From a virus (taxonomy: Duplodnaviria > Caudoviricetes), in the IMG/VR virus record IMGVR_UViG_3300011164_000019, positions 10,641 to 74,640 of that record: a stretch of 64,000 bases of DNA; one strand, written 5' to 3'. The notes beneath the pieces are model-generated. The model was given only the letters and a program-made list of their open reading frames with translations. It was not told the DNA's origin and searched no databases. This document shows, piece by piece, positions 5,146 to 55,774 of the stretch; the first letter of the stretch is position 1, and the number at the start of each line of letters is the position of its first letter. Position numbers and translations under genes: made by a program.

Positions 5146-6252
5146 TCAGATGTTGTAGTGGATAACTTTCCCGTAGGGCGCAGTGAACTTCTTGTTATTG
5201 TGGATGACCCACAATACAGGACACTTCGGTGCTGGCATTACATGCCTGAACTCACCGTCACTGAATACCAAGAGTGCAACTGGTTTGTTGTCTCTGGCCC
5301 ACTGGATTACTTCTGAAACATTCGTACCACCACGTCCGTGGAACGTGACCTGTTGCAAGTCAGATACACTCTTGAGTACATCCTTCTTGTGGATGCGTGT
5401 ATCAAACTGCAACAGAGTTATTTGCGATGGCTTCAGCTTTTTCATAATCCCATTTACTTCACTGATGAAGCGACGGAAGTCTGAGTTGCTGACTGAGCCT
5501 GAAGTATCAACAGCAACGGCTATTTCACCGAGGGTAATGCCGTAGAGAGTTGGGAGAATGTGTTCAGGCATGAAACGGCGATTGGGCCGCTTCCAGGTGT
5601 AGTCCGTCTTGGCGAACTGATTGAAGAACTTCCGCAGTAACTTGTCCCACGGAAGAATCGGGTTGAGGTATTCATCCAGGAAGATCTGGATATCACCTGG
5701 AATGGTGCCTGGCTTGTCACCGCTCATGGCTGACTGCGTGGCAGCCCGCATGACGATATCGGTGATGTGCTGCTCGGCCTGTTTCTGCTGCTCAGGAGAT
5801 TGAGGGCCTGGTGGCAGATCCTGCATGCGAGGCTGACCTGGATTGTCAGGCAGCAGGTCATACACCTGCAGCGTGCTCATGCCCTTGAACTGGGAGTCCT
5901 TGAGGACCCAATCAGGCATCTTGAAGCCACGCTCCAGCAGCATCAGGTTGATGACGTGATCGCCAGCGATGTTCCACTTGTCCGGGCAACGATCGCCACG
6001 ACGCACGGTGTGCATCAGGGCAGGGTGCATGCACTCATGCACCAGCACGAAGATCCGCTCTTCTTCGGAGAGTGAGAGGAAGAATTGGGGGTTGATGCCG
6101 ATGGTTGTGTCGTTCACATACGCATTCGGCTGAGTATCGTCAAAGACAATACGGAACGAAAAACAGAGGGTGGTGAAGAAAGCACTATCAGGCTTACTCA
6201 TAAGGCCGATCTTGGCTTTGTCGAGAGCCTTATTGGCATCTTGCAATGACAT
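5146..6252 (-). CDS. vWA-domain protein with N-terminal HExxH metallopeptidase-like domain (DUF2201-type; N4 gp25-like)
   Basis: HECMH motif; MIDAS DTSGS...GGT...SDG; start placed at ATG 6252 behind an AAGGAAG RBS. Confidence 0.9.
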   Translation of the reverse strand: MSLQDANKALDKAKIGLMSKPDSAFFTTLCFSFRIVFDDTQPNAYVNDTTIGINPQFFLSLSEEERIFVLVHECMHPALMHTVRRGDRCPDKWNIAGDHVINLMLLERGFKMPDWVLKDSQFKGMSTLQVYDLLPDNPGQPRMQDLPPGPQSPEQQKQAEQHITDIVMRAATQSAMSGDKPGTIPGDIQIFLDEYLNPILPWDKLLRKFFNQFAKTDYTWKRPNRRFMPEHILPTLYGITLGEIAVAVDTSGSVSNSDFRRFISEVNGIMKKLKPSQITLLQFDTRIHKKDVLKSVSDLQQVTFHGRGGTNVSEVIQWARDNKPVALLVFSDGEFRHVMPAPKCPVLWVIHNNKKFTAPYGKVIHYNI

Positions 6253-6298
6253 GGTGAACTTCCTTTGAAGTTGATAGTTGCAACTGACCGGACAATAA

Positions 6299-6339
6299 AA
6301 GTCCAACTTGCAGGCGTAACTATCCTGCAAATTGAACTT
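6299..6339 (-). terminator. 16-bp stem-loop, terminator-like or RNase III-like site
   Basis: AAGUUCAAUUUGCAGG-AUAGUUACG-CCUGCAAGUUGGACUU (2 G-U pairs) followed by UUAUUG. Confidence 0.5.
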
Positions 6340-6355
6340 CTAAAGTGTGCTGGGG

Positions 6356-6478
6356 TTACTTACGATTCCGACGAATCTCGGAACACTTCCTGTGACTGAT
6401 AGGGGAACTTCCCCCCCGGTGCCTTCCGCAAATATCGCAAGTGCTGCGCAATGTATCTTCCAGTGATTTGCTTCGCAA
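6356..6478 (-). CDS. Small Cys/His-containing protein (CDIC...H..C), start uncertain
   Basis: (M)RSKSLEDTLRSTCDICGRHRGGSSPISHRKCSEIRRNRK from TTG 6478; a competing ATG frame spans 6360-6494. Confidence 0.4.
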   Translation of the reverse strand: MRSKSLEDTLRSTCDICGRHRGGSSPISHRKCSEIRRNRK

Positions 6479-6503
6479 AGTACTGGGTTTCCATTGCGCC
6501 TTA

Positions 6504-6680
6504 CTACTCACTGACAACTTCCGATTTTTTCTTGTTCTTGATGTTATCCCGTTGGATCTCAATTTCTTTCGGGGCATCAATACCAATACGGGTTTGACCG
6601 TTCTGGGTACCAAGAATACGGACAACAATGTTGTCACCAATGTGGACTGCTTCACCTGCCTTGCGGGTAATTACTAGCAT
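6504..6680 (-). CDS. csrA: CsrA/RsmA-family RNA-binding translational regulator (58 aa)
   Basis: Hand translation MLVITRKAGEAVHIGDNIVVRILGTQNGQTRIGIDAPKEIEIQRDNIKNKKKSEVVSE; aligns without gaps to CsrA (MLILTRRVGE..IGD.......G....RIG..APKE...HRE); AAAGGAAG RBS; below the ORF-track length cutoff. Confidence 0.92.
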   Translation of the reverse strand: MLVITRKAGEAVHIGDNIVVRILGTQNGQTRIGIDAPKEIEIQRDNIKNKKKSEVVSE

Positions 6681-6766
6681 TACTACTTCCTTTCTACTAC
6701 TTGGATTGAATTAAGTGTTTGCACTTAGGCATCGCTATTCCGTCTGATTATTCAGCGGAACAGTCG

Positions 6767-7261
6767 TTATGTGTTGAGAGCCAACTGGGCTGTATTACCA
6801 GCGATCAGTTGTTTGGTGCGGTACATCTTTCCATACTCAACCTGGTTGTCCCAGGACGGTGGATCGACGGCCTCGTGGTGCCGCTTCAGAAGATCCTTTA
6901 CGGCATCCAGCGAGTTGTGTTCTTCAATGACCTTTTCCAGGACCGAGGGGTGGATGTAGTAATCACTTCCATTAATGGTCTTGAGTGTAAGGTCGCCGGT
7001 TTCGGTGAAACGACAGTACTGCACACCCTCTTCATATTCGGAGCCTTTGGCCCAGTCCATGTCGTAGGGGATGCCGGCTGACTGCAGCTCCTTGATGCAG
7101 TCCAGCTCTCCGTAGTTCACTTCTTCGAAACCCATGTAGTGAACTTCGTCGTTAAGGATGTCCTCCTCGTTGGGTTCCCCGTCATGCTTGATGGCGATTT
7201 CCTTGGCCTGCTCGAACAGCTCGGCAGGCACATAGAGGTACACGTAAGTACGATCGCCCAT
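6767..7261 (-). CDS. Hypothetical protein
   Basis: 164-aa acidic ORF starting 1 nt after the AAA ATPase stop. Confidence 0.8.
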   Translation of the reverse strand: MGDRTYVYLYVPAELFEQAKEIAIKHDGEPNEEDILNDEVHYMGFEEVNYGELDCIKELQSAGIPYDMDWAKGSEYEEGVQYCRFTETGDLTLKTINGSDYYIHPSVLEKVIEEHNSLDAVKDLLKRHHEAVDPPSWDNQVEYGKMYRTKQLIAGNTAQLALNT

Positions 7262-7262
7262 G

Positions 7263-8276
7263 TCAGAACAACTCTTTGGCGTTCTTGGTGATCCATGCCT
7301 GGATGGACTTGTGGTTCATCAGGGCAGGGCTGCGCCGCACCATTTCACGCAGGGTGACGACCTGGAACTCGATCGGCAGACGGGACACGAAGTCCATCAG
7401 TGGACCCGCGTTCTCATCGTTGGCGTTGTGGGCGATCGAGCCGGTCAGAGCAAACAGAATGCTCGGTTCCTGAGGCACCGGCAGGGTGGTGGCCTGTTCC
7501 ATCATCTGGTTCATGGTAGGCAGCCGGGAGTAGATCTCGGTGAAGGTACGGAACTCGCGTGCCACGCCTTCAGAGATGGTGCCAGCCAGCAGAGGAATGT
7601 CCTCGATACCGATCTGCTTGCCTTTGACCAGACGGTTGGCGAACTCCCAGGTACGGGGACTGGCATAGGTGCAGTCGGTGTGATCGGGACTGAAGGTGTA
7701 CAGCATGCCTGGCTTGAACTTGACGAAGCTGGTGATGCGGTGGTCGATACCATTCTTCATGGCCCAGCCTTCGCACCAGTCGATGTGATCCACTGTGACT
7801 TCCATATGGATCAGGCGAGATTCCAGAGCCGTGCTCATCTCTTCGACGATGGCTCCGTCTGTCTCCAGGTTACCTGCACAGACGATGGCGACCTTCTTGT
7901 GCAGATGGTGAGTGCCGACCATGCGATCCAGCACGAGCTTGTAGGCAGCAGCCTGCACGCCACGCGGAGCACTGGTGAACTCATCCATGAACAACAACCA
8001 GCCTTCGTAGCCCTTTGGAACCTCATCCCCTTCGATGGGGAAGGTTTCCATGGGCACGTAGCGGCCACGTCCATTGGCAGTGTTGGGGAAGCCCAGCAGA
8101 TCGGTTGGGTCGCACTGAGCAAGGCGTAGGTCGATGACCTTGAGGCCGTATTCCTTGGCGATCTGGTGAACGATGGAAGACTTGCCCACAGCAGGGCTGC
8201 CCTTGACGATCGGGACCAGGCCGACCTTGATGCACTGCACGATCATGTCGTGTGCTTGGCTGAGTTTGACTTTCAT
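7263..8276 (-). CDS. MoxR-like AAA+ ATPase (N4 gp24-like)
   Basis: Walker A GSPAVGKS, Walker B LFMDE, AGN, ALESR; lies near the vWA partner gene. Confidence 0.9.
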   Translation of the reverse strand: MKVKLSQAHDMIVQCIKVGLVPIVKGSPAVGKSSIVHQIAKEYGLKVIDLRLAQCDPTDLLGFPNTANGRGRYVPMETFPIEGDEVPKGYEGWLLFMDEFTSAPRGVQAAAYKLVLDRMVGTHHLHKKVAIVCAGNLETDGAIVEEMSTALESRLIHMEVTVDHIDWCEGWAMKNGIDHRITSFVKFKPGMLYTFSPDHTDCTYASPRTWEFANRLVKGKQIGIEDIPLLAGTISEGVAREFRTFTEIYSRLPTMNQMMEQATTLPVPQEPSILFALTGSIAHNANDENAGPLMDFVSRLPIEFQVVTLREMVRRSPALMNHKSIQAWITKNAKELF

Positions 8277-10801: not shown

Positions 10802-12049
10802 TCAACTTAAGGCATAGTTCGATTTGCGGATGTACTCAGACAAGTTCTGCATACGCTTAGGGACGGTGCCAGCAACACCATGGATCTGGCTCAGAATGTC
10901 ACTGAGGACTTCCGAGTCAGCCAGTTCTGCAAGGATCTCCTTGTACCAGTGACGCACCCAGTTGACGTTGTTGGTATGGGCCGCGAACGAGTCATGGATG
11001 GTGATCACCGGGAACGGACGGTACTGCAGCATCCCATTGAGGATAGTGCTCAGTTGATACAGCTCTGGTTTGGTCAGTGAGCACACTGTTGTGGCGTCCA
11101 GATAGGGCAGGATCACTGCACTTGGCTGGCCGCTTCGACGGTACTGCTCAAGGTAGTAGGCGAAGACGGAATCCTCGTCATACCCCAGAGGCTCGCACTC
11201 ATAGTCGAGCATGTTGCGGCTCAACAACTCAGCCTCGATCAGCGTCTTGGCTTGGCTCGCTACTGATACGTCGTAGTTACAGCGACGCAGCAGCTCACGC
11301 AGGATGAAGGCGTCGATGGAGTGGATGACATTGGCCACGTTGGCACGGCCAGTCTTCTCACCCTCGTTGACGTAGTACTCGTAGGTGAAGGTGGCATGGT
11401 CCAGCTCATCCACCTCGATACGAGTGGTCTCCTTGACCATCACCTTGACCTTGGCATCGAAGCCATCAGGCAGCTTCCACGCATGGCTCAGTGCGAATGG
11501 TTGCCAGCTGGCCAGCAGATCCTGCAGCAGTTCCCATGCACCTGGTGCCACGATCTCGACAGCCTCATAGAAGGCTGCCAGCTCTTGGGTGCCTTCACCG
11601 AACAGGACCTTCGGCACCTTCTTGGAGCCGTAGCAGCTGGTCATGAGTGCCTGCTTGGTGTGCTTGCGAGGGACGGAGAATCCGCCACCCAACAAGCCAT
11701 TCATGCACTCGTTCAGGTCGGTGTAGGCATCGGCACGACGGTCAGGATCGACCAGACCGGTAGCCTTGGCACCTGCGATGCAGCCGGTGAGTACCGACAT
11801 GATCTGCACACCCGAGCAGGTGGCATCCATGGCCACCAGATGACCAGTGGGCTGGCCAGCTTGAGCCTTGCGAATGGCCATCACAGCCTTGAGGTACAGC
11901 GGCTTGGTTTCAGCCTGATCGAGCAGATCCTCCAGATGGTCGAGGTTGTCCCGTGCCCATTGGATGCGATCTTCGAAGCGGAGCTTGTCGAGGCCGAAGT
12001 TGTTGGCAGCGTCAATCAGCAAATACTCAAAGCCAGTGAATTTCATCAT
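10802..12049 (-). CDS. RNA polymerase II large subunit (N4 gp16-like, T7-type palm)
   Basis: Motif A DATCSG, motif B RKHTKQALMTSCYG, motif C IHDSF; AAAGGA RBS before ATG 12049. Confidence 0.93.
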   Translation of the reverse strand: MMKFTGFEYLLIDAANNFGLDKLRFEDRIQWARDNLDHLEDLLDQAETKPLYLKAVMAIRKAQAGQPTGHLVAMDATCSGVQIMSVLTGCIAGAKATGLVDPDRRADAYTDLNECMNGLLGGGFSVPRKHTKQALMTSCYGSKKVPKVLFGEGTQELAAFYEAVEIVAPGAWELLQDLLASWQPFALSHAWKLPDGFDAKVKVMVKETTRIEVDELDHATFTYEYYVNEGEKTGRANVANVIHSIDAFILRELLRRCNYDVSVASQAKTLIEAELLSRNMLDYECEPLGYDEDSVFAYYLEQYRRSGQPSAVILPYLDATTVCSLTKPELYQLSTILNGMLQYRPFPVITIHDSFAAHTNNVNWVRHWYKEILAELADSEVLSDILSQIHGVAGTVPKRMQNLSEYIRKSNYALS

Positions 12050-12124
12050 GGTTTCAATTCCTTTGGGCAATAGGGGACCGCCCCAGTGTTGATCACACCG
12101 GTAAGCGATTGATTTGGTTGTGGT

Positions 12125-14610: not shown

Positions 14611-14635
14611 CGAAAACGACGCATAAATAAAAAGG
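14611..14635. repeat. 25-nt element, copy 1 (copy 2 at 51748)
   Basis: CGAAAACGACGCATAAATAAAAAGG versus CGAAAACGACGCATATATAAAAGGG. Confidence 0.75.
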
Positions 14636-14664
14636 CCCACTACCCCATGAGGGCAGCAGGCCTT
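14629..14664 (-). terminator. Intrinsic terminator after the gp1-like gene
   Basis: AAGGCCTGCTGCCCTCATGGGGTAGTGGGCCTT followed by TTTATTT. Confidence 0.75.
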
Positions 14665-32132: not shown

Positions 32133-35100
32133 ATGGCCCAACTTCCTGAGCTTCCTGAAGATATTCGTGGCATCGATCTGACGGATATCAAAAAGAACCA
32201 ACTGGCTCAGGCCAGTGAATTCAAGCGTCAACTACTGGAGGCCAGGAAGCCTCAGGGAGTCCAACCGGATTCCCTTCTGAGTCAGCACGAGCAACGTGTA
32301 GCCGGTATGCAGGCAGAGAATGCCGAGTACATGGCCAAGCGTGCTCAGAAGCAGGAAGCCTTCGACAACAGCTGGGTCGGTCGTAGTGGTGTTGATCCAG
32401 ACAGTTTCACTGCAGGTGTGATTGATGGTGGGGCCATGCTGACAGCAGGTGCCGGCTACTTGGCCGGTACTGTGCTGACTGCTGCTCCAAACACCCTGGC
32501 TGCCATTCAGGAGCTGGGCACCAGCGACGACGTGAAAGCAGCCTACACCCGGTTCAAGCAGGGTCAGGCCAGCGAAGCGGATATCGCGTTGCTGAACGAG
32601 AAGCAGGACCTGTTCACCACCAACCAGGAAGGGCTGGAGCGTGCCGATCACCTGCGCGAAGGCACTCGCGGGATCATGGACCTGTTCGACTGGAAGGGTG
32701 CGATCGATGCGCCTCAGCGTGAGCCTCTGCGCGAGGAGTTCGCCGAGGAAGCAGGTCCTGCTGTCGATCGACTGGCTCAGGCCTGGGAGCAGGTCAAGGA
32801 AGGCGAGTACACCGAAGCAGCCAAAGGCGCTGGCTGGGCACTCCCCAAGGTGGCTTACGAGATCGCCGAGAATGCGGTCCAGCATCCGGTCGGTGCAGTG
32901 ACTCATGCGCTGGAGAACGCTCCACAGCTGGCAGCTGGTGTGGCAGGCAAGCTGCCGATGGCTGTATCTAACGCAGGCTATGCCCTGGATGAAGTCCGTC
33001 AGGGCATGGACAATTACGAGCAGGACAATGACGGTGCTCGCCCAACAGGCGGTGAGTTCCGCGAAATGCTGCTGCGTGCCGGTAGCCTGGCAGCTGCCGA
33101 GCACATTGCCGATACCCAGGTACTCAAGACCCTGACCTCCCCGGTGACCAAGACCGCCCAAGTTCTGCCGGAGAAGGCAGTTGGTGCATTGGCCAAGCCG
33201 GCGAAGGCTGCTGGCACGGTACTGGGTACAGGTGCAACCGAAGCGGTGACCGAAGCCTTTCAGACGTATCAGGAAGGTGAGATCAAGAACCGTGAAGCCT
33301 CGCCCATGGACATTGCCGAAGGTGCTCTGCTGGGTTTTGCAGCCGGTGGTGCTACGGCTGCTGCATCCAAGGCGCCAGCAGATCTGTTGGGCAGTACGGG
33401 TGAGAAGAAGGAACCGGAAGTCGAGAAGGCCAGTGAGACCGGCAACGTGTCCTCGCTGTTGCAACCGGGCGCCTACGCACCGGAGAAAGCAGCCAAGGCT
33501 CTGGCAGAACACAGCCTGAAGAACGAGGACGCTCAGGTCCGTCAGGACAACCTGACCAAGCTGGGTGAGATCCGTTCTGCCCTGGAAGATGAAGCCAAGG
33601 CTGAAGCCATGGTCGAGCGTATCCAGCAGCGCATGGAATCCGCTCCTCAGGAGCAACAGCCTCAACTGGAGGCTTTGCTGGCTCAGGCCACCGAGTCGCT
33701 GACTGCCCGTCGTGCTGCACTGGGTCTGCAGGATGTACCGGCTGCCGAGCGTAAAGAAGCACTGGCCAAGCAGCTGGATCAGGTGAAGCAGGCAGAGGAC
33801 TCGATAACCCAGCTGATGGAACCGGAGAAGCAGGATCTGTCCTCGCAGATCGAGCTGGCCGATACCGTACTCGAGAACGTCACCCCTGAAGTCCAGCAGA
33901 CTGCCCGTAAGGCAGCCGAGCGTGTGGTCTCTCTGGCCATGGAATCGCCAGAAGCCCTGGATGTGGAGGTGGCTACTCGCCTGGCCAGCAACATGGCCAA
34001 CAGCCTCACCGAGCCTGAGCGTGTCGTGCTGCGTACCTTCGCCAAGGCCAAGGCACTGGCTCACCAGGTCAAAGGCCTGGAAGGCGTCAGCAGCGATATC
34101 TTCAACGGCAATCCGAAGGAAGGGTACAAGGGCCTCAACGAGTACAGCAGCAACGTGCGTCGTGCTCTGGCCTACAAGACTCCTGATCTGGAAGCCGCTC
34201 AGCACGAGATCGATGGCCTGGCCAAGTTCGTGGAGTCGCGCAAGGCCAAGCTGGCTGTGGCTCAGAAAGCCTTCGATGAAGTGGCCGGTACTCGGGATGA
34301 CGGACAGCAGTGGCTACCTACCAGGTCCGGGACCTGGGTGCCTGCTGATCGCAAGTACAGCTACGACGAGATGTACGCGATGGGTGGTATGACCATCCAC
34401 GGTGGATCTGGGAACCTGGTGGCCAATATCGCTCAGGAAACCGAAGCCCTGGAAGCCAGCCTGCAATCGCTGCAGGCACTGTACGCCATGAAGTCGGCTG
34501 CACCGGTACAAACAGCCGTGAATCAGCCGGAGGCTGCTGCACCTCAGGCCGTTGAGCCTGTTGAACAGAAGGCTCCAGTCCAGACACCGGAGCAGGAAGC
34601 CGGCATTGCCGAAGATGCCCCGGAAGCGGTGAAGTACCGCAAGACGAACAACCTCAAGCGTCTGTTCTCTCAGCAGCCAGGTAACCCGACAACCGGAACT
34701 CAGCGTCCGCTGGTGGCCACCGAGAACTTCCTGACCAAGCTCAGCCAGGGCGAAGTGAACACCCTGGATTACGTGCAGCAGGAAGACCTGAGCGAAGAGC
34801 AGCTGGGGCTGCCGAGTGCGTTCATCCGTACGGCCAAGGCCTGGATGCCGACCATCGAAGGCAACTTCTTCAAGCGGACCACTCAGGCCGGTCACAAGAC
34901 CGACGCACGGGATCACTACTACAACGACTACACCCAGTACCTGCAGGATGAGCAGGGGCAGGTGGCTGAGAACGTGAAGACCGCCATTGCGGCTGCTGCG
35001 TTTGCTCATGTGGCTGACAACGGCGGTCAGACGCTGAACGACAACACCACCATCAACAAGATCCTGGGCAAGGACAAGGATGCCTCGATCACCCCGGCAG

Positions 35101-38100
35101 CCAACCAGAAGCTGCGCAAGATCGGCACGCTGCGCAGTGCCCTGATCAACTCGCTGGGTCAGGCCGTGGTGCAGTCGCTGGGTTATCAGCTCAAGGGTGA
35201 TGCCTCGCAGAGCGAGAAGGCCAAGCTGGAAGTGGCCCTGGGTGCTCAGGCACTGGCTCTGCTGCTGGATCAGGGCATTGTCGAGCAGACCACCCTCACC
35301 AAAGGTGAGCTGGATGACCTCAAGGGCGTGGACTTCAATGGCCAGATCAAGGCCATGCGTGCAGTCGCCAAGACTCAGGCCGATCGGGATGCCATCGACA
35401 GGTTGATCGAGTCCCGCAAGAACGAGGTGGCCTTCATTCGCTTCGTGACCAACAAGGACGGCGCCCTGACTCAGGAAGCTCAGGCGATTCGAGATGCCAG
35501 CAAGAATACAGGTAGTCTGTTCACCAAGCTGTTCGGCATCGAGACCGGTCCCCGTGAACCGAGCTTCAAGCCACTGAAGTACGACCAGAAGACGGCGAAC
35601 AACTCCACCAAGCCGATCTCCGACAAGGAGCGTGCTGCGTTGGAGAAGGAAGCCAAGGCACCCTACATCCTGCAAAAAGACATGTGGGCCGTGCTGGAGA
35701 AGATCGCCAACCCGGCGATGATTCTGCAGATGGCAGGCGTGCAGGATGAGGCGCTGGAGACTCTGCACAAGACCAACCGTGACGGTGTGACCGCCAAGAA
35801 CCAGGGCCTGATGCGCGAATGGGAACGTCTGGTGGCGTTCGTGGGCGATCTCAGCCGTCAGAAGGCTGGCCAGGACACCAAGTTCTACCTGATGCCGAGT
35901 GCCTGGAAGAACGATCGTGTGGGCCTGGATTCGGCCATCAACCCGCAAACCAGCAAGATTCATCGCTTCGTCATTGGCAAGCAGAGTGCCGAGACCGAGG
36001 TTCGCTGGACTGACGCCGACCAGTCGATGCTGGACGTATTCAAGCTGCGTGTGGCTGAAGGTCTGGGCATGAAGACCGACAAGCAGGACAACAAGCGTTC
36101 GTTGGCTGCCTACGAAGCCGAGATGCAGAAGCCGGTGTACCAAAATGCAGTGGCTGCCCTGCGTAAGGCTTTGCTGGATCAGGACCTGACCTCGGGCGAA
36201 CAGCAGGCGATCGTCGAAGGCGTGAAGGCTGGCGGTGAGAACTTCCATTCGCTGTCCTCGCTGGTGGCCCAAGCCACCTACGAGAACGCCCGTGAGGCTG
36301 GGCAGCAGAAGTTCACCACCATGCTGCTGGCCGAAGTGGACGGCGTGACCAATGGCCCGATGCTGGGTCACCTGCTGTTCGGTGCCTTCCATTCGATGCA
36401 GGATGCGATGGCTAGACTGAACAAAGGAGGTTTCTTCGAGACCGGTAATGCTTTCGAGCAATACAACCTGTGGCGTGCAGCACCCGGTCAGAGTGACCTG
36501 TATGAGTCGACTGCCATCGACCTGAACGCGGTGGTGCAGGAGAAGTGGCAGGACAAGAAGTTGCAGCCTATGTACAGCGCGCTGTTTTACGTCACCGGCA
36601 AGCTGGACGACAAAGGGTCACCAACCAAGGCTGGCCGTAATCTGATGAAGCCTCCGGTGACCAAGAGTGGTTACGGTGAAGGTCTGGGCAAGACCGTCGA
36701 AACCATGGCTGAGGATTTCATTCAGCAGGTCTACGACCACATCCAGGAGATCTCGGCAGGCAAGTCCAAGCTGGAGCTGCAACCGCTGCTGTCGTCTGTT
36801 CGTCTGCTGATCAGCAAGGCCGATGAGAAGGCGGCTGCAGAGTTGGACGTGGATATGCCGATCGAGAGGGCGATGGAGTTCACCTTCACGAACCAGCAGT
36901 TCAAGGCATTGAAGTCCACCTACCTGAGCACGCTGGGTAGGGATATCACGGCCACCATCAAGGAAGCCTTTGGTCCGTTCACCGAGCGTCGTCAGGCCTT
37001 CAACCAGGCTGCCAACCTGGCATTCGACCTGTACCAGCAGCTGTATCAGTCCAAGCGTCGTGCCCTGATCGACCAGCTGATCGCCGAAGGCAAGATGGCT
37101 ACGGACGCCAAGGGTGTTCCGCTGCATGACCTGACCAACAAGCAGGAAGCTGAGCTGCAGGCTTCGCTGACTGATGTGGCTCCGATCCTGCACACCGCAT
37201 TCTCCAGTGCCAGCGATCAGCTGCAGGCCGGTATGCGTCTGGCCAAGCGAGACAAAGGCCTCAGTGATGAGGCCGCCTACCGCAACGAGGTGAAGTTCGG
37301 CAAGAAGGGCAAGAAGCCAATGGCTGGTTTGCGTGCCTTCGGCTACAAGACCGGCGAAGTAGGACCGGGCGTGTCCGGTGCCGTGGGTTCGGTTCACTCG
37401 ACCGACGCTGCGATCTCGATCAATGCCGGTGCCGAGGTGGATTCGATCAACGTCCACGATGCCCGTATCTACGGACTGAAGGATGTGCATGCGGGTGCCC
37501 GTAGCCTGAACAAGCAGACCTTCCTGCAGGCGCTGGAATACTCCCCGATGGACCAGATGCTGGCCACCCTGGAGCGTTCGATCAAAGGCCTGGCGGATGC
37601 ACTGGCTCAGGAAAACGATGCAACCCTGAACGCTGGCGTGGCTTCGCTGCTGACCAAGAAAATCGCTTCGCTGAGCGACATTGAATATGACCTTATGGCC
37701 GATAGTGGTAAAGGGCTGATCCAATTTCAGCTGGATCGGCTCCGTGCTACCGCACTGGCTGCCGAATCCATGAAGCTGGAGATCCTGGCCAACCTGCAGG
37801 CGGTCGACCAGTACGCTTTCGAAGGTGGTGCCTACCAGGTCACCGAGCAGGATCGTGCAAAGGCCCAGCAAAAGCTGGAGGAGCGTAAGCAGCGCCCTGA
37901 TGATGTAGCGGTCACTGAGGCAGCAAAGCAGATCGATGCACTGCTTGGCCAGAAAACTGCACAGGCAAAGCTGGCTCCAGTGGTACAGAGCGAACCTACT
38001 CTGGTCGATGATGCCGATCTGGGCATTCCTGAGCGTCAGGAAGATCCTGTTGTAACCACCAGTGCCTGGGGTGAGTTGGGCAAGTCGCCGATCGAGCATG

Positions 38101-41100
38101 ACAGTGAGCTGGTTCAGTTCTTCAAGAGCAACCCGCGGCCTTCGCTCAAGTATGTACTCAAGGCCCTCCGTTCGCGTATCGAAGTCACCAGCAACGGACG
38201 GACTCAGGAGTACAACCGCGAACTGTGGAAAGCCCTGGCCAAGCACGTCAATCCGGCGATGAAGATCGTCTACGTCACGCCTGAGATGGCGATCCCGGAA
38301 GGTGTGGCCGAGAAGCAGGCACAGTCTGCCCGTGGTCTCTACAGCTTCAGCGATTCGATTGACACGCTGTACATCAAGAGCGATGCGTTCCGTCGTTCGG
38401 GCGTGACCACTGAACTGCTGATGCACGAGCTGGTTCACTCGGTGGTAGCCCGTACCATCGATCTGGCCGAGCAGGGCAAGCCTCTGCCGGATACGGCTGA
38501 ACTGGTGGCTGAACTGGGTGTGCTGCTGGAGCGCAGCCGTCAGCATGTGGCCGATAAGCCTGAACTGGCTCAGCGGTACAGCAATGCCCTGGCCAACGTG
38601 CAGGAGTTCGTGGCCTGGGGCATGACCAACCAGGGTTTCCAGCGTGATGTGCTGAACCAGTTCACCCTGCAGACCAAGACCTCGCGCAATGTGCTGGTCA
38701 AGGCCATGGAAGCCCTGACCAATGTGCTGCGTGACATTCTGTTCCGTGGTTCGGACAAGTCGGCACAGAAGATCCAGGTCACTGGCTTGAAGACGCTGCT
38801 GGCCAACGTCTCCGGTCTGATGGCGACGGCTGAACAGGCGCGTGAGGCCGTAGGTACTCAACGCACGCTGGCCATGGAAGATCCGGTTCTGGATATGGAC
38901 GTGGCTGATCTGTTCGATGGCCTGCGTAACACCGAGCAGCCCCTGGATGTTGGCTTCGAGAGTCACCTGCGTGATCTGCTGGATAACGTGGTGCGTCCGC
39001 TGCATGGTCCGTTTGGTGCCGTGCGTCTGGAAGCCTTGGACGATCAGGTGATCGGTGCCCGTGAGCGTTTCCTCAAGGCTCTGGCGACTGGCAAGGCACC
39101 GTTCGCTGCCAAACTCAGTGACGTGGTGAAGCTATCCGATCAGGAAGCGTTCCTGGCCGAGAGCATTGAAGTCGCCCTGCGTACTGCCCTGGAATCGAAG
39201 GATCGTTCGTCCTCGCTGGTCTACCGCGAGCTGAAGGGCCTGTACAACGAGATCAAGGCATCGCTGCCGGTATCGGCATTCTTCGATGGCGACTGGACCC
39301 AGGCCAGTGATGAACAGAAGGCGGAGGCCCAAGCCCTGCGTGAGTTCTTCCTGGAGATCCCGGACGGGGAAGGGCAGTCCGACTACCTGAGCCGCTTCGC
39401 TGCTCTGGGTCTGGCCTACCGTCCGCTGTGGAAGCTGCTGGATCGATCGACTCAGCAAGACACTCGTGTCCTGCGTGATCTGAGCTGGCTTGAGCGTCTG
39501 CAGGCTCTGGTTGAGCGTGCCATGGCCTATCTGGCCGGCAAGTGGACGCACACCTATGCCGGTCAGCAGGCCAACGACAAGCTCAAGACCCTGGTCGGTG
39601 AGCTGGTGGATATCGAGGCCAAGTACCGGGAAAAGGCTGCTCGTCCGAACAACCAGTGGATCGAGATGGCCGAGAACGCTCTGGCCGGTGTTCAGGGCAA
39701 GGCCAAGGACATGATCGACCAGGTGGCCAAGTCGGACATGGTGCGTAACTCGAAGGTCAGCGGTGTTCGTCTGATGGGTCGAGTGGCCAGCCTGGCTGCC
39801 GATGACCGCCTGGAAGCGGTGGTGGATGCCGGTAACCAGCTGCGTGACCGTCTGTTCAAGGGACGCCAGGGTCTGATGGCTGGCATGTTCAACGAGATGA
39901 AAGGGCCGAACGAGATCATGTTGGCCCTGCTCAACTTCGCCAAGCGCAATGAACAGGAGCGTAAGCACCTAATCAACTGGACCCGTGATACGGCCTTGGA
40001 GAGCTTCGCCAATAAAGGCAAAGACCTAACTGCCAAGGACAAGGACGCCATGGCTCTGCTGCTGCGTGCTGATCTGGCTTCGCTGCTGGATTACGGCTAC
40101 TCGCTGGAGGAGCTGCAGCAACTGCTGAGTCCCAACGGCAGCCTGCAGCAGCGGATTGCTGAATTGGGCAAGCAGCTCAAGACCTCGACTCATGCAGCCA
40201 TGTACCTGCGTCGTGCCGAGGCTCTGGGCAAATACATGGCCACCGGCAAGGCATCGATCGACAACCTGATGCTCAACGCGGACAACATCGCTCGCATGCT
40301 GGGCACCAAGGATGCACACAGCATTCCGGATGCTGAGCTGGATCGGGTACGTCCGCTGATCGATCAGCTGGCTTCGCTGTACGCCCTGGCCAATGCCAAC
40401 GAGTCTGACAAGGAGCGGATCTCCAACGTCCTGGCGACCGAGCTACAGCGTACCGATGGTGGTAACGGGGTGACCTTCGTTCTGAAGATGCACCGTGCCA
40501 TGCAGCAGGAAGCCAAGGAAAAGCTGTTCGAGAACAGTGAGGCCTTGTTCACCAAGGGCTACACACCGGAGATCCACAACCCGCACACCGAGGTACTGGC
40601 TGCCACCGAGGAAGAGGGCGAGGCACTGGTACGCCAGGGCTTCCAGCGTGTGGTCGGCAACCCGTTGAACCAGGATGCCGATGACCTGGATAAGCGTGCC
40701 AAGCACCTCTACATCCTCAAGGGCCGTGGCATGCAGCAGCGTCTGACCGGTGCCCTGTCCTATACAGGTGAGCGTGCCAAGGGCAGTCGCAAGCATGGTG
40801 GGATCGTCAACACGATCACCGGTAGCCTGAACACTCATAACGTCCAGGTCACTCAGCGACTGGCTCATGCCAAGCGCGTGCGTGAGGAGATGGCGATTCA
40901 GCAGGGCAAGCCGATGGGTGGGGTCCACATGGTCCCTGTACTTAATGCTGCCGGCGAGATCGTCAACTACCGCTACGTGATGAGCAACAAGGCACGGGAT
41001 TCGCTGCTGGAGCGAACCAATGCGTTCGATACGCTGCTGGGTACGCTGCATGGCAACGTGTTCGACAAGCAGGCCTCGCGTGAGCAGAACGCCCAAGTGG

Positions 41101-42380
41101 TCAAGGCCTTGTTCGATCAGTGGAATGCTGACAAGAACGATCGCCGTGACGCCTACATCATGGTGGGTCCGGACAGCAGCGATGCTGAAGGTGCAGAGAC
41201 CTGGCGTCTGCTGCCACACCACACTCAGGAAGCGATTCGTCAGGTGTGGAAGGGCAACAACATGATGGTGCGCAACGATCAGATCGACCTGATCGCCGGT
41301 TACCGCAAGTACAGCCTGGCTGACATGTTCGACAAGCAGGATCGTACGACCAAGGGTATGAAGAACCTGCTCAAGCATCAGGAAGATGAACGCAACATGC
41401 TGGAGCAGATGACCGTCTGGCTGTTGCAGGACTTCTTCGGGCTGGGTGACAAGGCGGCATTGCGTGTTCGCCAGGCAGAGGACTTCTGGCAGGCGGTGGT
41501 ACAGGAAGTGAAGGATATCGTGGTGGTACGGTCGGGTGTGACCTTGTTCTGGAACGTGGTCAGCAACATGACTGTACTGTTGTGGCAGGGTGTTCCGATC
41601 AAGGATCTGATGCGGAATCACTGGGTGGCGTGGCGTGGTGCAGTCAACTATCGGAAGGATTCCGAAGAGCTGTTCCGTCTGGAAGCAGCATTGTCGACTG
41701 GCACGTCTGGGGATGCGAAGGCTACACAGCAGCGTATTCGCCAATTGCAGGATTCTCTGGCACGTAACCCGGCCAAGGAACTGATTGATGCGGGGATGTT
41801 GCCGACCATCGTCGAAGACGTGGCCTTGGAAGAAGACCCTTACTCCTATCGCAGCAAGCTGAAGGAGAAGGTGGATCAGTACACCAGCAAGCTCAACCCC
41901 ACGGTCAAGCAAGCGGCTGCGTTCGTCTACATGGCTCCAGGTACTCCGTTGCACACGGCGATGAGCCAGGCCACTCAGTACTCGGACTTCGTGGCTCGCT
42001 ATACGCTGTATCAGCACCTGATCAGCGACAAGAAGGCGCCGAAATCCAAGCAGGAAGCGTTGAAGCGGATCTCCGACAGCTTCGTCAACTACGACGTACC
42101 GTCGCACCGCCACATGCAGTACCTGAATGACATGGGCTTGCTCATGTTCACCAAGTACTACCTGCGGATTCAGAAGGTGATCATGCAGATGTTCCGGGAG
42201 CATCCGGCTCGGGCGATCATGATGGTGACCCTGGATATCTACCTGAGCGGCATGCAGACCATCGTCGACTCCTCGATGTGGGGTCGCCTGGGGAATCCGC
42301 TGGAGTGGGGTGCCTTGCAGTACCCCGGCACGCTGGATGAGCTGGCCACCATCAAGGGAATGATGAACCTGTTCAAGTGA
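32133..42380 (+). CDS. Virion-encapsidated RNA polymerase (vRNAP, N4 gp50-like)
   Basis: 3415 aa, no Cys; motif A EVDGVTNG, motif B RNLMKPPVTKSGYG, motif C NVHDA. Confidence 0.97.
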   Translation: MAQLPELPEDIRGIDLTDIKKNQLAQASEFKRQLLEARKPQGVQPDSLLSQHEQRVAGMQAENAEYMAKRAQKQEAFDNSWVGRSGVDPDSFTAGVIDGGAMLTAGAGYLAGTVLTAAPNTLAAIQELGTSDDVKAAYTRFKQGQASEADIALLNEKQDLFTTNQEGLERADHLREGTRGIMDLFDWKGAIDAPQREPLREEFAEEAGPAVDRLAQAWEQVKEGEYTEAAKGAGWALPKVAYEIAENAVQHPVGAVTHALENAPQLAAGVAGKLPMAVSNAGYALDEVRQGMDNYEQDNDGARPTGGEFREMLLRAGSLAAAEHIADTQVLKTLTSPVTKTAQVLPEKAVGALAKPAKAAGTVLGTGATEAVTEAFQTYQEGEIKNREASPMDIAEGALLGFAAGGATAAASKAPADLLGSTGEKKEPEVEKASETGNVSSLLQPGAYAPEKAAKALAEHSLKNEDAQVRQDNLTKLGEIRSALEDEAKAEAMVERIQQRMESAPQEQQPQLEALLAQATESLTARRAALGLQDVPAAERKEALAKQLDQVKQAEDSITQLMEPEKQDLSSQIELADTVLENVTPEVQQTARKAAERVVSLAMESPEALDVEVATRLASNMANSLTEPERVVLRTFAKAKALAHQVKGLEGVSSDIFNGNPKEGYKGLNEYSSNVRRALAYKTPDLEAAQHEIDGLAKFVESRKAKLAVAQKAFDEVAGTRDDGQQWLPTRSGTWVPADRKYSYDEMYAMGGMTIHGGSGNLVANIAQETEALEASLQSLQALYAMKSAAPVQTAVNQPEAAAPQAVEPVEQKAPVQTPEQEAGIAEDAPEAVKYRKTNNLKRLFSQQPGNPTTGTQRPLVATENFLTKLSQGEVNTLDYVQQEDLSEEQLGLPSAFIRTAKAWMPTIEGNFFKRTTQAGHKTDARDHYYNDYTQYLQDEQGQVAENVKTAIAAAAFAHVADNGGQTLNDNTTINKILGKDKDASITPAANQKLRKIGTLRSALINSLGQAVVQSLGYQLKGDASQSEKAKLEVALGAQALALLLDQGIVEQTTLTKGELDDLKGVDFNGQIKAMRAVAKTQADRDAIDRLIESRKNEVAFIRFVTNKDGALTQEAQAIRDASKNTGSLFTKLFGIETGPREPSFKPLKYDQKTANNSTKPISDKERAALEKEAKAPYILQKDMWAVLEKIANPAMILQMAGVQDEALETLHKTNRDGVTAKNQGLMREWERLVAFVGDLSRQKAGQDTKFYLMPSAWKNDRVGLDSAINPQTSKIHRFVIGKQSAETEVRWTDADQSMLDVFKLRVAEGLGMKTDKQDNKRSLAAYEAEMQKPVYQNAVAALRKALLDQDLTSGEQQAIVEGVKAGGENFHSLSSLVAQATYENAREAGQQKFTTMLLAEVDGVTNGPMLGHLLFGAFHSMQDAMARLNKGGFFETGNAFEQYNLWRAAPGQSDLYESTAIDLNAVVQEKWQDKKLQPMYSALFYVTGKLDDKGSPTKAGRNLMKPPVTKSGYGEGLGKTVETMAEDFIQQVYDHIQEISAGKSKLELQPLLSSVRLLISKADEKAAAELDVDMPIERAMEFTFTNQQFKALKSTYLSTLGRDITATIKEAFGPFTERRQAFNQAANLAFDLYQQLYQSKRRALIDQLIAEGKMATDAKGVPLHDLTNKQEAELQASLTDVAPILHTAFSSASDQLQAGMRLAKRDKGLSDEAAYRNEVKFGKKGKKPMAGLRAFGYKTGEVGPGVSGAVGSVHSTDAAISINAGAEVDSINVHDARIYGLKDVHAGARSLNKQTFLQALEYSPMDQMLATLERSIKGLADALAQENDATLNAGVASLLTKKIASLSDIEYDLMADSGKGLIQFQLDRLRATALAAESMKLEILANLQAVDQYAFEGGAYQVTEQDRAKAQQKLEERKQRPDDVAVTEAAKQIDALLGQKTAQAKLAPVVQSEPTLVDDADLGIPERQEDPVVTTSAWGELGKSPIEHDSELVQFFKSNPRPSLKYVLKALRSRIEVTSNGRTQEYNRELWKALAKHVNPAMKIVYVTPEMAIPEGVAEKQAQSARGLYSFSDSIDTLYIKSDAFRRSGVTTELLMHELVHSVVARTIDLAEQGKPLPDTAELVAELGVLLERSRQHVADKPELAQRYSNALANVQEFVAWGMTNQGFQRDVLNQFTLQTKTSRNVLVKAMEALTNVLRDILFRGSDKSAQKIQVTGLKTLLANVSGLMATAEQAREAVGTQRTLAMEDPVLDMDVADLFDGLRNTEQPLDVGFESHLRDLLDNVVRPLHGPFGAVRLEALDDQVIGARERFLKALATGKAPFAAKLSDVVKLSDQEAFLAESIEVALRTALESKDRSSSLVYRELKGLYNEIKASLPVSAFFDGDWTQASDEQKAEAQALREFFLEIPDGEGQSDYLSRFAALGLAYRPLWKLLDRSTQQDTRVLRDLSWLERLQALVERAMAYLAGKWTHTYAGQQANDKLKTLVGELVDIEAKYREKAARPNNQWIEMAENALAGVQGKAKDMIDQVAKSDMVRNSKVSGVRLMGRVASLAADDRLEAVVDAGNQLRDRLFKGRQGLMAGMFNEMKGPNEIMLALLNFAKRNEQERKHLINWTRDTALESFANKGKDLTAKDKDAMALLLRADLASLLDYGYSLEELQQLLSPNGSLQQRIAELGKQLKTSTHAAMYLRRAEALGKYMATGKASIDNLMLNADNIARMLGTKDAHSIPDAELDRVRPLIDQLASLYALANANESDKERISNVLATELQRTDGGNGVTFVLKMHRAMQQEAKEKLFENSEALFTKGYTPEIHNPHTEVLAATEEEGEALVRQGFQRVVGNPLNQDADDLDKRAKHLYILKGRGMQQRLTGALSYTGERAKGSRKHGGIVNTITGSLNTHNVQVTQRLAHAKRVREEMAIQQGKPMGGVHMVPVLNAAGEIVNYRYVMSNKARDSLLERTNAFDTLLGTLHGNVFDKQASREQNAQVVKALFDQWNADKNDRRDAYIMVGPDSSDAEGAETWRLLPHHTQEAIRQVWKGNNMMVRNDQIDLIAGYRKYSLADMFDKQDRTTKGMKNLLKHQEDERNMLEQMTVWLLQDFFGLGDKAALRVRQAEDFWQAVVQEVKDIVVVRSGVTLFWNVVSNMTVLLWQGVPIKDLMRNHWVAWRGAVNYRKDSEELFRLEAALSTGTSGDAKATQQRIRQLQDSLARNPAKELIDAGMLPTIVEDVALEEDPYSYRSKLKEKVDQYTSKLNPTVKQAAAFVYMAPGTPLHTAMSQATQYSDFVARYTLYQHLISDKKAPKSKQEALKRISDSFVNYDVPSHRHMQYLNDMGLLMFTKYYLRIQKVIMQMFREHPARAIMMVTLDIYLSGMQTIVDSSMWGRLGNPLEWGALQYPGTLDELATIKGMMNLFK

Positions 42381-51298: not shown

Positions 51299-51739
51299 CT
51301 ATTCAGGTGTCTGGATCTGTTGTTTGTTGATGTACTTCTGGATATGAAACAGGCACAACTTGATCGCTTTCAGGTACTTCTGTGCCTGGCGTGTATCCAC
51401 GCCCAGCATGTAGCGGATTTCCTGGGTGTTGATCACGTCCATGCACTGCAGGATGTTGTAGAGCCGGGTCACACTCAGTGGGATGGAGTACTTCCCAGCC
51501 TTGCTGTGGTGATCCAGTCGAGCGATACCCAGGATGATGTCGTCCACCGGACTTCCGTCGTACGCCTTGTACTGCTGCATGAAGCTCAACAGTGGGTTGG
51601 CAGTGTTACGGGGCGACTGAGGCCGGGGGAAGGTGTAGCTGGAGCTGTAGCGAATCCGGTCGACTCGTGCCTTGCCCAGGCGGGCCGTGAGGTTGGGCAT
51701 TTCATCGATCGGGAAGGTGCGGATGGTGGTGGCGTCCAA
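51299..51739 (-). CDS. Hypothetical, possible DNA-binding protein
   Basis: 146 aa, TTG start with GAGG RBS; INTQEIRYMLGVDTRQAQKYL is HTH-like. Confidence 0.7.
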   Translation of the reverse strand: MDATTIRTFPIDEMPNLTARLGKARVDRIRYSSSYTFPRPQSPRNTANPLLSFMQQYKAYDGSPVDDIILGIARLDHHSKAGKYSIPLSVTRLYNILQCMDVINTQEIRYMLGVDTRQAQKYLKAIKLCLFHIQKYINKQQIQTPE

Positions 51740-51747
51740 GGTGACCT

Positions 51748-51772
51748 CGAAAACGACGCATATATAAAAGGG
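51748..51772. repeat. 25-nt element, copy 2
   Basis: 23/25 identical to 14611-14635; adjoins a GGGG-ATCT-CCCC hairpin. Confidence 0.75.
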
Positions 51773-52189
51773 GATCTCCCCTGTGCCTTCGGCTCACTCG
51801 TCACAGGCTCGAACCCCCTTCAAAACCCTGACCTGATCCGAGGCGCGAACGCAGCACAAGGCGCACGCAGGCGCAGCCGAGTACGCCGCCAGTGCGGAGG
51901 TTCGCAACGAGGATCTGGGAAGGAGGAGGTGGAGCTAGAACTGAGGACCAGTTCCTGGACTAGAGAGCGGCGCGCAGTGTAAGGAGGTGTTTCAGCTGAA
52001 AAATTGACTTGGATCAACTGGCTATTAGCCATCTCCCCGAGTCGATGAATGGTTACAGCAACGTCGTATCCGCACTATCGGCTCGCAAGCTCGCCTCGTG
52101 CTGCACTCCGCTGCAGTAACCGTTCTTCCTTGAAATCACACTGAACCTCTTCTCAATGGTTCGTCACCGAACGCCCGAGAGGGCGTCTG

Positions 52190-53917
52190 TCACGCTGAGC
52201 AGGCTACGCACTCATCCTTCACGACCACACCGCTGCGTGAGTAGATGTAGTACTGGGACAGGACGTTCTCATCGAGCAGGACCAGGGTCATCAGCTCGGC
52301 GATCAGATCCTCGCTGCCATCCTCCGGCACGTAGAAGTTCAGGCTCTGACCTTGGCAGGTCCACTTCTGACGCTGGGAGCAGTGACGCAGCAGGATGTGC
52401 TGATCCATCTCGAAGCCGTTGAGGAACACCAGCTTCTCATGGTCACCCAGCCAGTCGACATGCTGAACAGAACCGAGGTGATCGATAATGTCCTGCACGG
52501 TCTCTTCGCTGTAGACGCCGCGAGCTTTCATCAGCTCGTAGAACACCGGAGGAATCCGGCGAAGCTCGCCTACGGATGAGCCAGCATCGAACACCATGCC
52601 GGGGTCCGGGAACCAGGATTCACTGACGCCACCCATGAGCAGGCTGGTGGTCTTGGTGGGTGCATACGCAGTGCGGTGCGTGTTGCGAACACCGTAGCCC
52701 TTACACCATTCAGGTTCGCCGTATTCCTGTGCCAGCCACTGGCTTGCCCGTAGGGATTCGTCATGCAGGTGCTTGGCGATCTCGGTGGACAGGAACTGTG
52801 CTTCCAGGCTGACGTACGGAATGTTCTGCGACTGCAGGTAGGTGTGGAAGCCCATGATGCCTAGACCGATGGCTCGGCCTTTGATCGTGAACTCACGTAC
52901 CTTCTCCAGTCCTGGAATACCGGCACTCTTCTCGATGAATTCCTGACACAGGCAATCCAGGAACACCGTTGCGATGAAGACCGACTCACTGTTCTTGATA
53001 CGGTCCCAATGCACCAGGTTCAGCGAAGCCAGGATGCAACTGTAGGTCAGATCATCCGAGCTGTGCAGCATGATCTCGGAGCACAGGTTGGTGGCCCGAA
53101 TGTCCAGGCCCCAGTCCTTGTACATCTGAGGACGGTGACGGTTGGCCTTGTCGATGCAGAAGACGTAGCCCTTGCCAGTGATCAGCTTGGTGTAAAGCGC
53201 CTTGGTCCAGCGACGGTTGGCCTCTTTGTCACCTGCCTTGAGCTTGTCCACGAACGAATCACGGATGATCCAGCCGTAGTTCTTCCCGTTGGGTTCAGCG
53301 GCCAGCGAATCGCAAGCCTCATCCCAGTCACCATGCTCGATATCCAGGTAGGCACCGATGGAACCACGGCGAGCACCGCCTTGGCTGATCTTGCCAGCTG
53401 CAGTGAAGAAGTCGTTGATGACCTCTACGGCACCACTGGCTTCGCCACCCTTGCTGATCGATGTACCACGGGCACGAATACCACTGAAGTCGGCACTGGT
53501 GCCAAAGCCCCACTTGGACAGCAGAGCGGTCTCGCGCAAGGCCGTGTAGAAGCCATCCACGCTGTCGCTGACCACTTGCCCGGAGCAGGCCACCATCATG
53601 CCTCGATCGGTTCCCGTATTGGCGAATGCAGGGCTGGAAGGGCTGAGGATGCCGTCCCACATCTCGTTGAAGAACTTCTCTTCCCATTCCACCTCACGAC
53701 CTTTCATGTGACGGGCCAGGGTGTAGGCGATACGCCGATGGCGACCGAGCACGGCCAGTTCGTTGGGAACGGCGTACTTCTTCTTGAACATCTGCCAGCC
53801 TTGCGTGGTGTACCAGCTCGGCAGGTGGCCCACTTCCTGGAGTCGCTTGCGCTCGACGCTCAGCTGCTCGAATTTCTGCAGGGTCTGTTCATCCAGACCA
53901 GTTGGATCAAACGCCAT
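52190..53917 (-). CDS. nrdA: Ribonucleotide reductase class Ia alpha subunit (no ATP cone)
   Basis: SPSSPAFAN, TNLCSEI, APTKTTS, QGQSLN, YYIYS, C-terminal CVAC. Confidence 0.93.
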   Translation of the reverse strand: MAFDPTGLDEQTLQKFEQLSVERKRLQEVGHLPSWYTTQGWQMFKKKYAVPNELAVLGRHRRIAYTLARHMKGREVEWEEKFFNEMWDGILSPSSPAFANTGTDRGMMVACSGQVVSDSVDGFYTALRETALLSKWGFGTSADFSGIRARGTSISKGGEASGAVEVINDFFTAAGKISQGGARRGSIGAYLDIEHGDWDEACDSLAAEPNGKNYGWIIRDSFVDKLKAGDKEANRRWTKALYTKLITGKGYVFCIDKANRHRPQMYKDWGLDIRATNLCSEIMLHSSDDLTYSCILASLNLVHWDRIKNSESVFIATVFLDCLCQEFIEKSAGIPGLEKVREFTIKGRAIGLGIMGFHTYLQSQNIPYVSLEAQFLSTEIAKHLHDESLRASQWLAQEYGEPEWCKGYGVRNTHRTAYAPTKTTSLLMGGVSESWFPDPGMVFDAGSSVGELRRIPPVFYELMKARGVYSEETVQDIIDHLGSVQHVDWLGDHEKLVFLNGFEMDQHILLRHCSQRQKWTCQGQSLNFYVPEDGSEDLIAELMTLVLLDENVLSQYYIYSRSGVVVKDECVACSA

Positions 53918-54938: not shown

Positions 54939-54960
54939 AAGTACTCCTCATAGAGCAGGT

Positions 54961-55006
54961 AAAAAAGAAGCCAGAACCTCCCAGGAAAAGTTGGAGGTTC
55001 TGGCTT
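54961..55006 (-). terminator. Intrinsic terminator after thyX
   Basis: 14-bp perfect stem AAGCCAGAACCTCC/GGAGGTTCTGGCTT followed by CTTTTTT. Confidence 0.85.
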
Positions 55007-55053
55007 AAATGGAGCAGGAGAGATGGCTACGCACTTCGCAGTACGTAGTTAGA

Positions 55054-55698: not shown

Positions 55699-55774
55699 TG
55701 TACATCTCGTTTTAGATGGTGTTGGTGGTAGTGCGTATAGTAACGCCCCGTAGAAACTTATTAGGGTGCTTCTC

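Follow-up and report, generated by a model that had tools for sequence, protein, structure and literature searches.

A small gene of the CsrA/RsmA family, csrA, was found on the minus strand at positions 6504–6680 (stop codon included) of the analysed stretch of phage DNA, referred to below as the window (64,000 nt, bases 10641–74640 of a 74,640-bp IMG/VR record, classed as a provirus by IMG/VR). It is a real phage-encoded gene, and its 58-aa product keeps the RNA-binding residues of the family; it very probably gives an N4-like phage with an integrase a working CsrA/RsmA-type regulator, the protein forming a homodimer, binding GGA motifs and being expressed in the replication phase. With it, an N4-like temperate phage of Stutzerimonas joins the phages carrying their own CsrA/RsmA. 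The preliminary description of this DNA gave no strand; the minus strand was established by analysis of the open reading frames (ORFs).

The 58-aa ORF occupies exactly the interval 6504–6680, starts with ATG and is preceded by the Shine-Dalgarno (SD) sequence AAGGAAG (6686–6692, minus strand), which was read from the sequence, lies 5 nt before the start codon and is invariant in 13 relatives; both the ORF and its strong ribosome-binding site agree with the preliminary description. A CsrA-family HMM search, named there as a check, gave 72.6 bits with Pfam PF02599 (cut-off 27; E 2.6e-20; profile positions 1–51 of 53), and a scan of the whole record revealed a single PF02599 copy (71.3 bits). The protein also matched PHROG 9500, 'CsrA-like regulator' (E 4e-18), and the PDB matches included RsmE (2jpp), E. 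coli CsrA (1y00), Yersinia CsrA (2bti) and P. aeruginosa RsmA (1vpz, 7yr6), all aligned without gaps (E ~1e-12), as the earlier reading of the sequence had it. The same reading called the gene hidden, which is true for an ORF cut-off of 60 aa, but public gene calls already contain the protein with PF02599.

According to mutagenesis of E. coli CsrA, the RNA-contact residues belong to β1 (L2, L4, R6, R7) and β5 (V40, V42, R44, I47). The counterparts of these residues in the phage protein, L2, I4, R6, K7, I40, I42, R44 and I47, are identical or conservative, and in an alignment of 18 sequences that includes bacterial CsrAs, M1, L2, R6, E10, I14, D16, I34, A36, P37 and R44 do not vary. All residues listed in the preliminary description (L2, T5, R6, G9, E10, IGD, RIG, AP, R44 and I47) were found, and the QRD replacing HRE and the Lys-rich C-terminal tail are both as it described. 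Compared with RsmE, RsmA and CsrA (2jpp, 1vpz, 1y00, 7yr6), the alignment is gap-free over residues 1–50, and R44, L2, R6, K38, A36-P37 and G33 are kept, whereas the phage protein carries the replacements H43Q, E45D, E46N and Y48K, and the identity is about 45–51% over the aligned residues; after R44, the phage sequence is Q-R-D-N-I-K versus the canonical H-R-E-E-I-Y. The tail of the phage protein is short, Lys-rich and disordered, in contrast to the longer C-terminal helix of RsmE/RsmA/CsrA; AlphaFold2 (AF2) predicted disorder for residues 49–58 (pLDDT <50), and the C-terminus contains a clade-specific conserved sequence, K-x-E-V-V-S-E. The scores obtained with the NCBIfam models of chromosomal CsrA equivalogs, TIGR00202 and NF002469, are below the trusted cut-offs (64.3 vs. 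70.1 and 65.4 vs. 73), so the phage CsrA is a divergent member of the family and not a housekeeping orthologue or copy, and its specificity may therefore differ.

AF2 modelling of the monomer, based on the 18-sequence alignment, yielded a model with a mean pLDDT of 77. In a Foldseek search with this model, ranks 1–15 were all CsrA, RsmA or RsmE chains (probability 1.00), with TM values of 0.60–0.66, typically about 0.65, and 0.50 for one NMR model; the comparison assigns the predicted structure to the CsrA fold, composed of five β-strands and a short helix. Strands β1 and β5 were not assigned by DSSP in the monomer model. CsrA dimers are domain-swapped, and the missing strands would fit an architecture of this kind, in which they pair with the other subunit.

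Analysis of the relatives revealed 12 csrA DNA alleles encoding 5 proteins, with dN/dS values of 0.04–0.09 within the close clade and 0.25–0.38 between subclades; csrA evolves under purifying selection. Dozens of public contigs carry CsrA variants with 95–100% identity, in addition to variants at 74–81% identity, and none of the relatives examined, which span dozens of assemblies, has a disrupted ORF. Being fixed in the phage lineage and present in many assemblies, csrA is not a passing acquisition. Variation at conserved positions includes Q at the otherwise invariant E10 in one subclade and A at I47 in another. A search of GTDB species genomes found no close relative of the phage CsrA, the best match (57%) belonging to a Pseudomonadales MAG. 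The divergence between subclades (contigs L017–L020, L064, L010 and L077 versus the window) clusters in the 3′ half of csrA (codons ~23–55), and the first 100 nt of the gene and the downstream RNA are nearly identical between those subclades; this mosaic divergence along csrA suggests allele exchange by recombination.

A 99-aa frame on the minus strand (6356–6655) overlaps csrA. It had been described as a spurious frame masking the gene; the frame does exist, and its rejection as a gene is backed by relative L010, where no single ORF of at least 40 aa spans the matching stretch, and by the substitutions among relatives, which sit at csrA third codon positions. One could argue, from the small size of csrA (58 aa) and the longer overlapping frame, that csrA is a chance ORF or a decaying remnant and the 99-aa frame is the true gene, but the match to PF02599, the purifying selection acting in the csrA frame, the intact ORF in all relatives examined and the lack of a single-ORF counterpart of the 99-aa frame in L010 all speak against it; this interpretation has a negligible probability and is effectively refuted by the family match and the selection.

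The gene neighbourhood of csrA is composed of genes on the same strand. Upstream are the genes of an AAA/MoxR-like ATPase (7263–8276, minus strand; phrog_1297, E 6.9e-124), which is conserved among N4-like phages and is 46–50% identical to the ATPases of cultured N4-like phages, and of a 164-aa protein with no assigned function (6767–7261, minus strand; phrog_31558, E 2.5e-6), which is present in most relatives and absent from contigs L014 and L015. Downstream is the gene of a 368-aa DUF2201_N metallopeptidase-like and VWA-like protein (5146–6252, minus strand, from the ATG at 6252; PF13203, PF09967), with the start placed as in the gene calls of relatives. The order AAA ATPase, 164-aa protein (where present), csrA, DUF2201/VWA, helicase and DNA polymerase, on one strand, was found in every related contig, and it also holds in genomes with the 74–81% identical CsrA variants; genes of homing endonucleases and other small genes vary around this conserved core. 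The whole csrA block is situated downstream of the gene of an N4-type RNA polymerase II subunit (10802–12070, minus strand; phrog_2051, E 2e-149; PF00940 in relatives). A search of the minus strand between 6100 and 7400 detected no sigma-70-like promoter. In phage N4, the replication block is subject to middle-phase transcription by the phage RNA polymerase II. Since csrA shares the strand with the replication genes and lies downstream of the RNA polymerase II gene, middle-phase expression is most likely. Genes of HNH/NUMOD4 homing endonucleases are located at differing sites in contigs L011, L013, L014, L015, L023 and L025, around the DNA polymerase, RNA polymerase II and ATPase genes; in several relatives, they split the DNA polymerase/RNA polymerase II genes into separately called pieces, possibly as introns, inteins or free-standing endonucleases.

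The carrier genome encodes a virion RNA polymerase of 3415 aa, the hallmark of N4-like phages (32133–42380, plus strand; phrog_2206, 1945 bits, full length), and an N4-like replication set including the AAA ATPase, DUF2201/VWA protein, Dda-like helicase, family-A DNA polymerase, primase and exonuclease; the giant virion RNA polymerase, RNA polymerase II and replication genes together identify the phage as N4-like (Schitoviridae). The protein identity to cultured N4-like phages is only about 46–50%, and no GenBank phage matched the csrA region or the virion RNA polymerase gene in nucleotide searches, so the kinship to cultured phages exists at the protein level only. A second minus-strand block (52190–55821), parted from the csrA block by the structural genes and the virion RNA polymerase gene, encodes the large and small subunits of ribonucleotide reductase and thymidylate synthase.

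The left end of the record (contig L021), 9.4 kb before the window, carries a gene of a tyrosine integrase (record bases 4–1188; PF00589 and an Arm DNA-binding domain); the ORF encodes 395 aa, and public calls start later, giving 340 aa. A relative with ~92% identity is located inside a 284-kb contig of the assembly GCA_029839225.1, where the junction (L063:16438–20076) comprises the integrase gene followed directly by ybiT (ABC-F ATPase) and bacA, the products of both being exact matches to Stutzerimonas stutzeri-group proteins; a second relative is contained in a 335-kb NCBI contig. The integrase and the host-flanked relatives indicate that this N4-like Stutzerimonas phage is temperate or, at the minimum, capable of integration. 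The phage had been taken for a lytic one, which is contradicted by the tyrosine integrase at the record end and by the relatives integrated beside ybiT/bacA in Stutzerimonas chromosomes. Zheng et al. (2023, mSystems, PMC10654107) described 40 integrated N4-like proviruses and found lysogeny hallmark genes in 54 genomes; those proviruses, like the phage studied here, are N4-like genomes with an integrase inside bacterial chromosomes, and the main text of that article mentions neither CsrA nor stutzeri.

CsrA homologues of phages have been catalogued before. Sobrero & Valverde (2020, PMC7366521) found csrA in 30 of 2517 phage genomes, mostly of Pseudomonas phages, and a PF02599 search of GenBank and IMG/VR by Campa et al. 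(2021, PMC8450108) revealed many phage RsmA genes, proposed to manipulate host physiology, including CRISPR-Cas. Deletion of the CsrA-domain gene bci of Pseudomonas phage AUS531phi lowered infectivity (Ambroa et al. 2020, PMC7546807) and also altered quorum-sensing gene expression, motility, biofilm and pyocyanin (PMC7546807). The concept of a phage-encoded CsrA is already published, and the gene found here is a further example, not a new kind; with homologues catalogued (PMC7366521, PMC8450108) and bci deleted and phenotyped (PMC7546807), the novelty first attributed to the gene has to be lowered. The catalogued proteins (PMC7366521, PMC8450108; PHROG 9500) and the protein studied here are alike in being small CsrA-domain proteins associated with a host genus that has its own Rsm, and the same Pfam model, PF02599, finds them all; the difference lies in the carrier, which here is an N4-like genome with a virion RNA polymerase. 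The identity to GenBank phage CsrAs does not exceed 53% among the matches listed, and among the listed matches of 93 GenBank phage records none has the N4-like size of 70–80 kb; as the listed matches make up about three quarters of the 93, priority as the first csrA in an N4-like phage cannot be firmly claimed. The best GenBank phage match among those listed was Bci of AUS531phi (50% identity over residues 1–50). Both proteins have an N-terminal CsrA domain and belong to temperate phages of the Pseudomonas group, AUS531phi being a siphophage. Bci is a 123-aa protein with a C-terminal extension, unlike the minimal 58-aa protein found here, and bci is driven by a separate promoter that contains a putative las/rhl box, whereas csrA lies inside the replication gene block.

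Proceeding from these features, the phage CsrA would most likely form the usual domain-swapped homodimer, which could bind GGA in RNA loops and SD sites through β1 (L2–K7) and β5 (I40–R44) and thereby repress or remodel translation, the target mRNAs being those of the host or of the phage. Its synthesis would most likely coincide with that of the middle, replication-phase proteins once the phage infects or is induced, and would supplement the existing Gac/Rsm system of the host with further RsmA-like activity. Early and middle transcription of N4-like phages relies on RNA polymerases of their own, and a post-transcriptional regulator expressed with the replication genes would add a second, translation-level control over the host or the phage. 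The host group possesses both RsmA and RsmN, as reported for P. stutzeri (PMC7366521), which would make the phage protein a third, divergent Rsm protein. Escape from the host RsmY/Z and the timing of the phage's own genes, both put forward in the preliminary description, are ideas at this point. The practical value of the system is modest and consists in a compact, 58-aa natural CsrA variant with a conserved RNA neighbour, suitable for tests of mobile CsrA proteins and the host Gac/Rsm system.

This RNA neighbour, a conserved and strongly structured non-coding region of 251 nt (6253–6503, minus strand), extends between the csrA stop codon and the start of the DUF2201/VWA gene and is the one feature beside csrA that deserves further attention. 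Its identity across relatives is 91–98%, even where CsrA is only ~78% identical, and it is the best-conserved stretch of the aligned csrA locus, above the csrA coding sequence. The predicted fold is much stronger than that of shuffled sequences, with z −5.67 for the window, −5.70 for L022 and −3.08 for L010. The first domain (6446–6503, 58 nt) contains an outer helix, a middle helix and an inner hairpin, with an unpaired A(U/C)GGAAAC; the helices differ in sequence in three lineages, and their nesting and the unpaired A(U/C)GGAAAC are kept. A CAC-AGGAA-GUG hairpin follows at 6384–6394, its AGGAA loop being changed to AUCAA in L010. A 19-bp hairpin with GCAGGAUAG at the apex (6296–6342) precedes UUUUAUUG, and AAAGGAAG at 6259–6266 is the SD of the DUF2201/VWA gene; the arrangement of the 19-bp hairpin, UUUUAUUG and the SD is conserved in relatives. 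Three GGA sites are common to all lineages, namely those in the unpaired A(U/C)GGAAAC, the apex GCRGGAUAG and the SD; in total, the sense strand of the region contains nine GGA in the window, and only four of them are kept in L010. This loss and the change of the AGGAA loop make a multi-site sponge at 6253–6503 unlikely. A 44-aa ORF (6360–6494) was considered as a gene and rejected, since it has a stop at codon 7 in L022; the conservation of the region is therefore not protein-coding. Rfam searches, whether at the gathering threshold or at permissive ones, yielded no credible match to the window, the csrA locus or the 51.9-kb tract discussed below, and a scan of viral contigs with the hairpin 3′ arm motif returned 18 loci, of which only 5 belong to true relatives, the others being random occurrences in AT-rich contigs of no kinship. 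Two relatives have an inserted gene of 219 aa that directly follows TTTTATTG at ~6296, a sequence similar to the TTTTAT(A/T)TATGCGTCGTTTTCG motif described below. The region is possibly an autoregulatory leader or a plain terminator followed by a leader; as a candidate partner RNA of CsrA it appears better than the 51.9-kb tract, though an action of CsrA on it is rather improbable.

The structured region is central to one of the alternative explanations of csrA, according to which the protein regulates the phage's own genes, binding the 6253–6503 RNA and the SD of the DUF2201/VWA gene, with autoregulation or timing of the replication genes as the outcome. The exceptional conservation of the 251-nt gap (91–98%), its strong structure (z −5.7) and the three GGA sites conserved in all lineages point in this direction, but L010 retains only four of the nine GGA and has lost the AGGAA loop at 6384–6394 to AUCAA, the long hairpin with UUUUAUUG can equally be read as a plain terminator, and GGA is present in SD sequences anyway; such a role is unlikely. 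Quite improbable is a further variant, where csrA and the 251-nt downstream RNA constitute a self-contained protein–RNA regulatory module, the RNA being an autoregulatory leader that gates translation of the replication block or a cis-encoded CsrA buffer; if it were true, the module would represent a phage-internal Csr switch in an N4-like temperate phage.

Two other explanations are directed at the host. csrA may be a lysogenic-conversion gene (moron), expressed from the resident prophage and retuning the host Gac/Rsm system, with biofilm, motility, secondary metabolism and possibly defence systems as the affected traits, and not a factor of lytic-phase takeover. The carrier genome encodes an integrase and related phages occur as integrated proviruses, most of the listed csrA-positive GenBank phages are temperate-typical in size and name (F116-, D3- and phi297-like), Bci responds to quorum-sensing signals in the lysogen (PMC7546807), and the structured non-coding DNA on both sides of csrA could make it a transcription unit of its own. 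Against this stands the location of csrA inside the same-strand replication block, away from the integrase gene and the genome ends, and the minus strand at 6100–7400, where no sigma-70-like promoter was found. Morons usually sit near the integrase gene or at genome ends, and a role in lysogenic conversion is possible but rather unlikely. It is also conceivable that the protein is an antagonist and not a mimic, forming mixed dimers with the host RsmA/RsmN or soaking up RsmY/RsmZ, with no mRNA regulation of its own. The low identity to RsmA/RsmE (only ~45–51% over the aligned residues), the altered region after R44, the clade-specific C-terminus K-x-E-V-V-S-E and the domain swapping of CsrA dimers, which makes mixed dimers conceivable, are consistent with antagonism, but all RNA-contacting positions are kept or conservatively replaced, as fits an mRNA binder, and this explanation is very doubtful. 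A functional RNA-binding CsrA, expressed with the replication genes, is the preferred interpretation.

The preliminary description also suggested that csrA and a GGA-dense tract at about 51.9 kb, a proposed sponge RNA (51884–51990, plus strand), may form a complete Csr/Rsm circuit; examination of the tract lent no support to this role. With 9 GGA per 100 nt, it is the densest place on the two strands of the window, but chance alone produced at least 9 GGA per 100 nt in 21.5% of the sequences of 64 kb simulated with a first-order Markov model. In five related genomes, the maximum at this place is 4–7 GGA per 100 nt, and the densest part, including the sole neat hairpin with an AGGAC loop (51938–51954), gives way to unrelated sequence. 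The 450-nt gap that contains the tract is flanked by nrdA (52190–53917, minus strand) and a phrog_3360 gene (51299–51739, minus strand); since the minus strand encodes both, the strand with the GGA motifs runs antisense to the operon. The plus-strand fold is no better than that of shuffled sequences (z +0.31), no Rfam match was found for the tract even at E up to 10, and neither a promoter-like site nor a plus-strand terminator was found there; a search for GacA boxes found none at the tract and one chance-level match elsewhere. The features of a sponge sRNA (many GGA in loops, a promoter with a GacA box, a terminator and conservation) were not found at the tract, and the circuit is not supported. 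Two ORFs in this region were rejected as genes: a 220-aa plus-strand ORF (51320–51982), which has no family match and overlaps the minus-strand gene with a PHROG match, and a low-complexity 70-aa ORF (51820–52032).

The conserved part of the 51.9-kb gap is a minus-strand element ending in a GGGGAGAUCCCC hairpin followed by UUUUAUAUAUGCGUCGUUUUCG, and this element, a candidate terminator/promoter junction for the phage's own transcription, does not resemble a sponge. A hairpin followed by TTTTAT(A/T)TATGCGTCGTTTTCG occurs twice on the minus strand, at 51748–51782 and 14611–14660 (motif at 14611–14630), with 0.01 expected by chance; both copies occupy the junction between two genes, immediately ahead of the second, and relatives with protein identity as low as 60% still have the copy at 51.7 kb.
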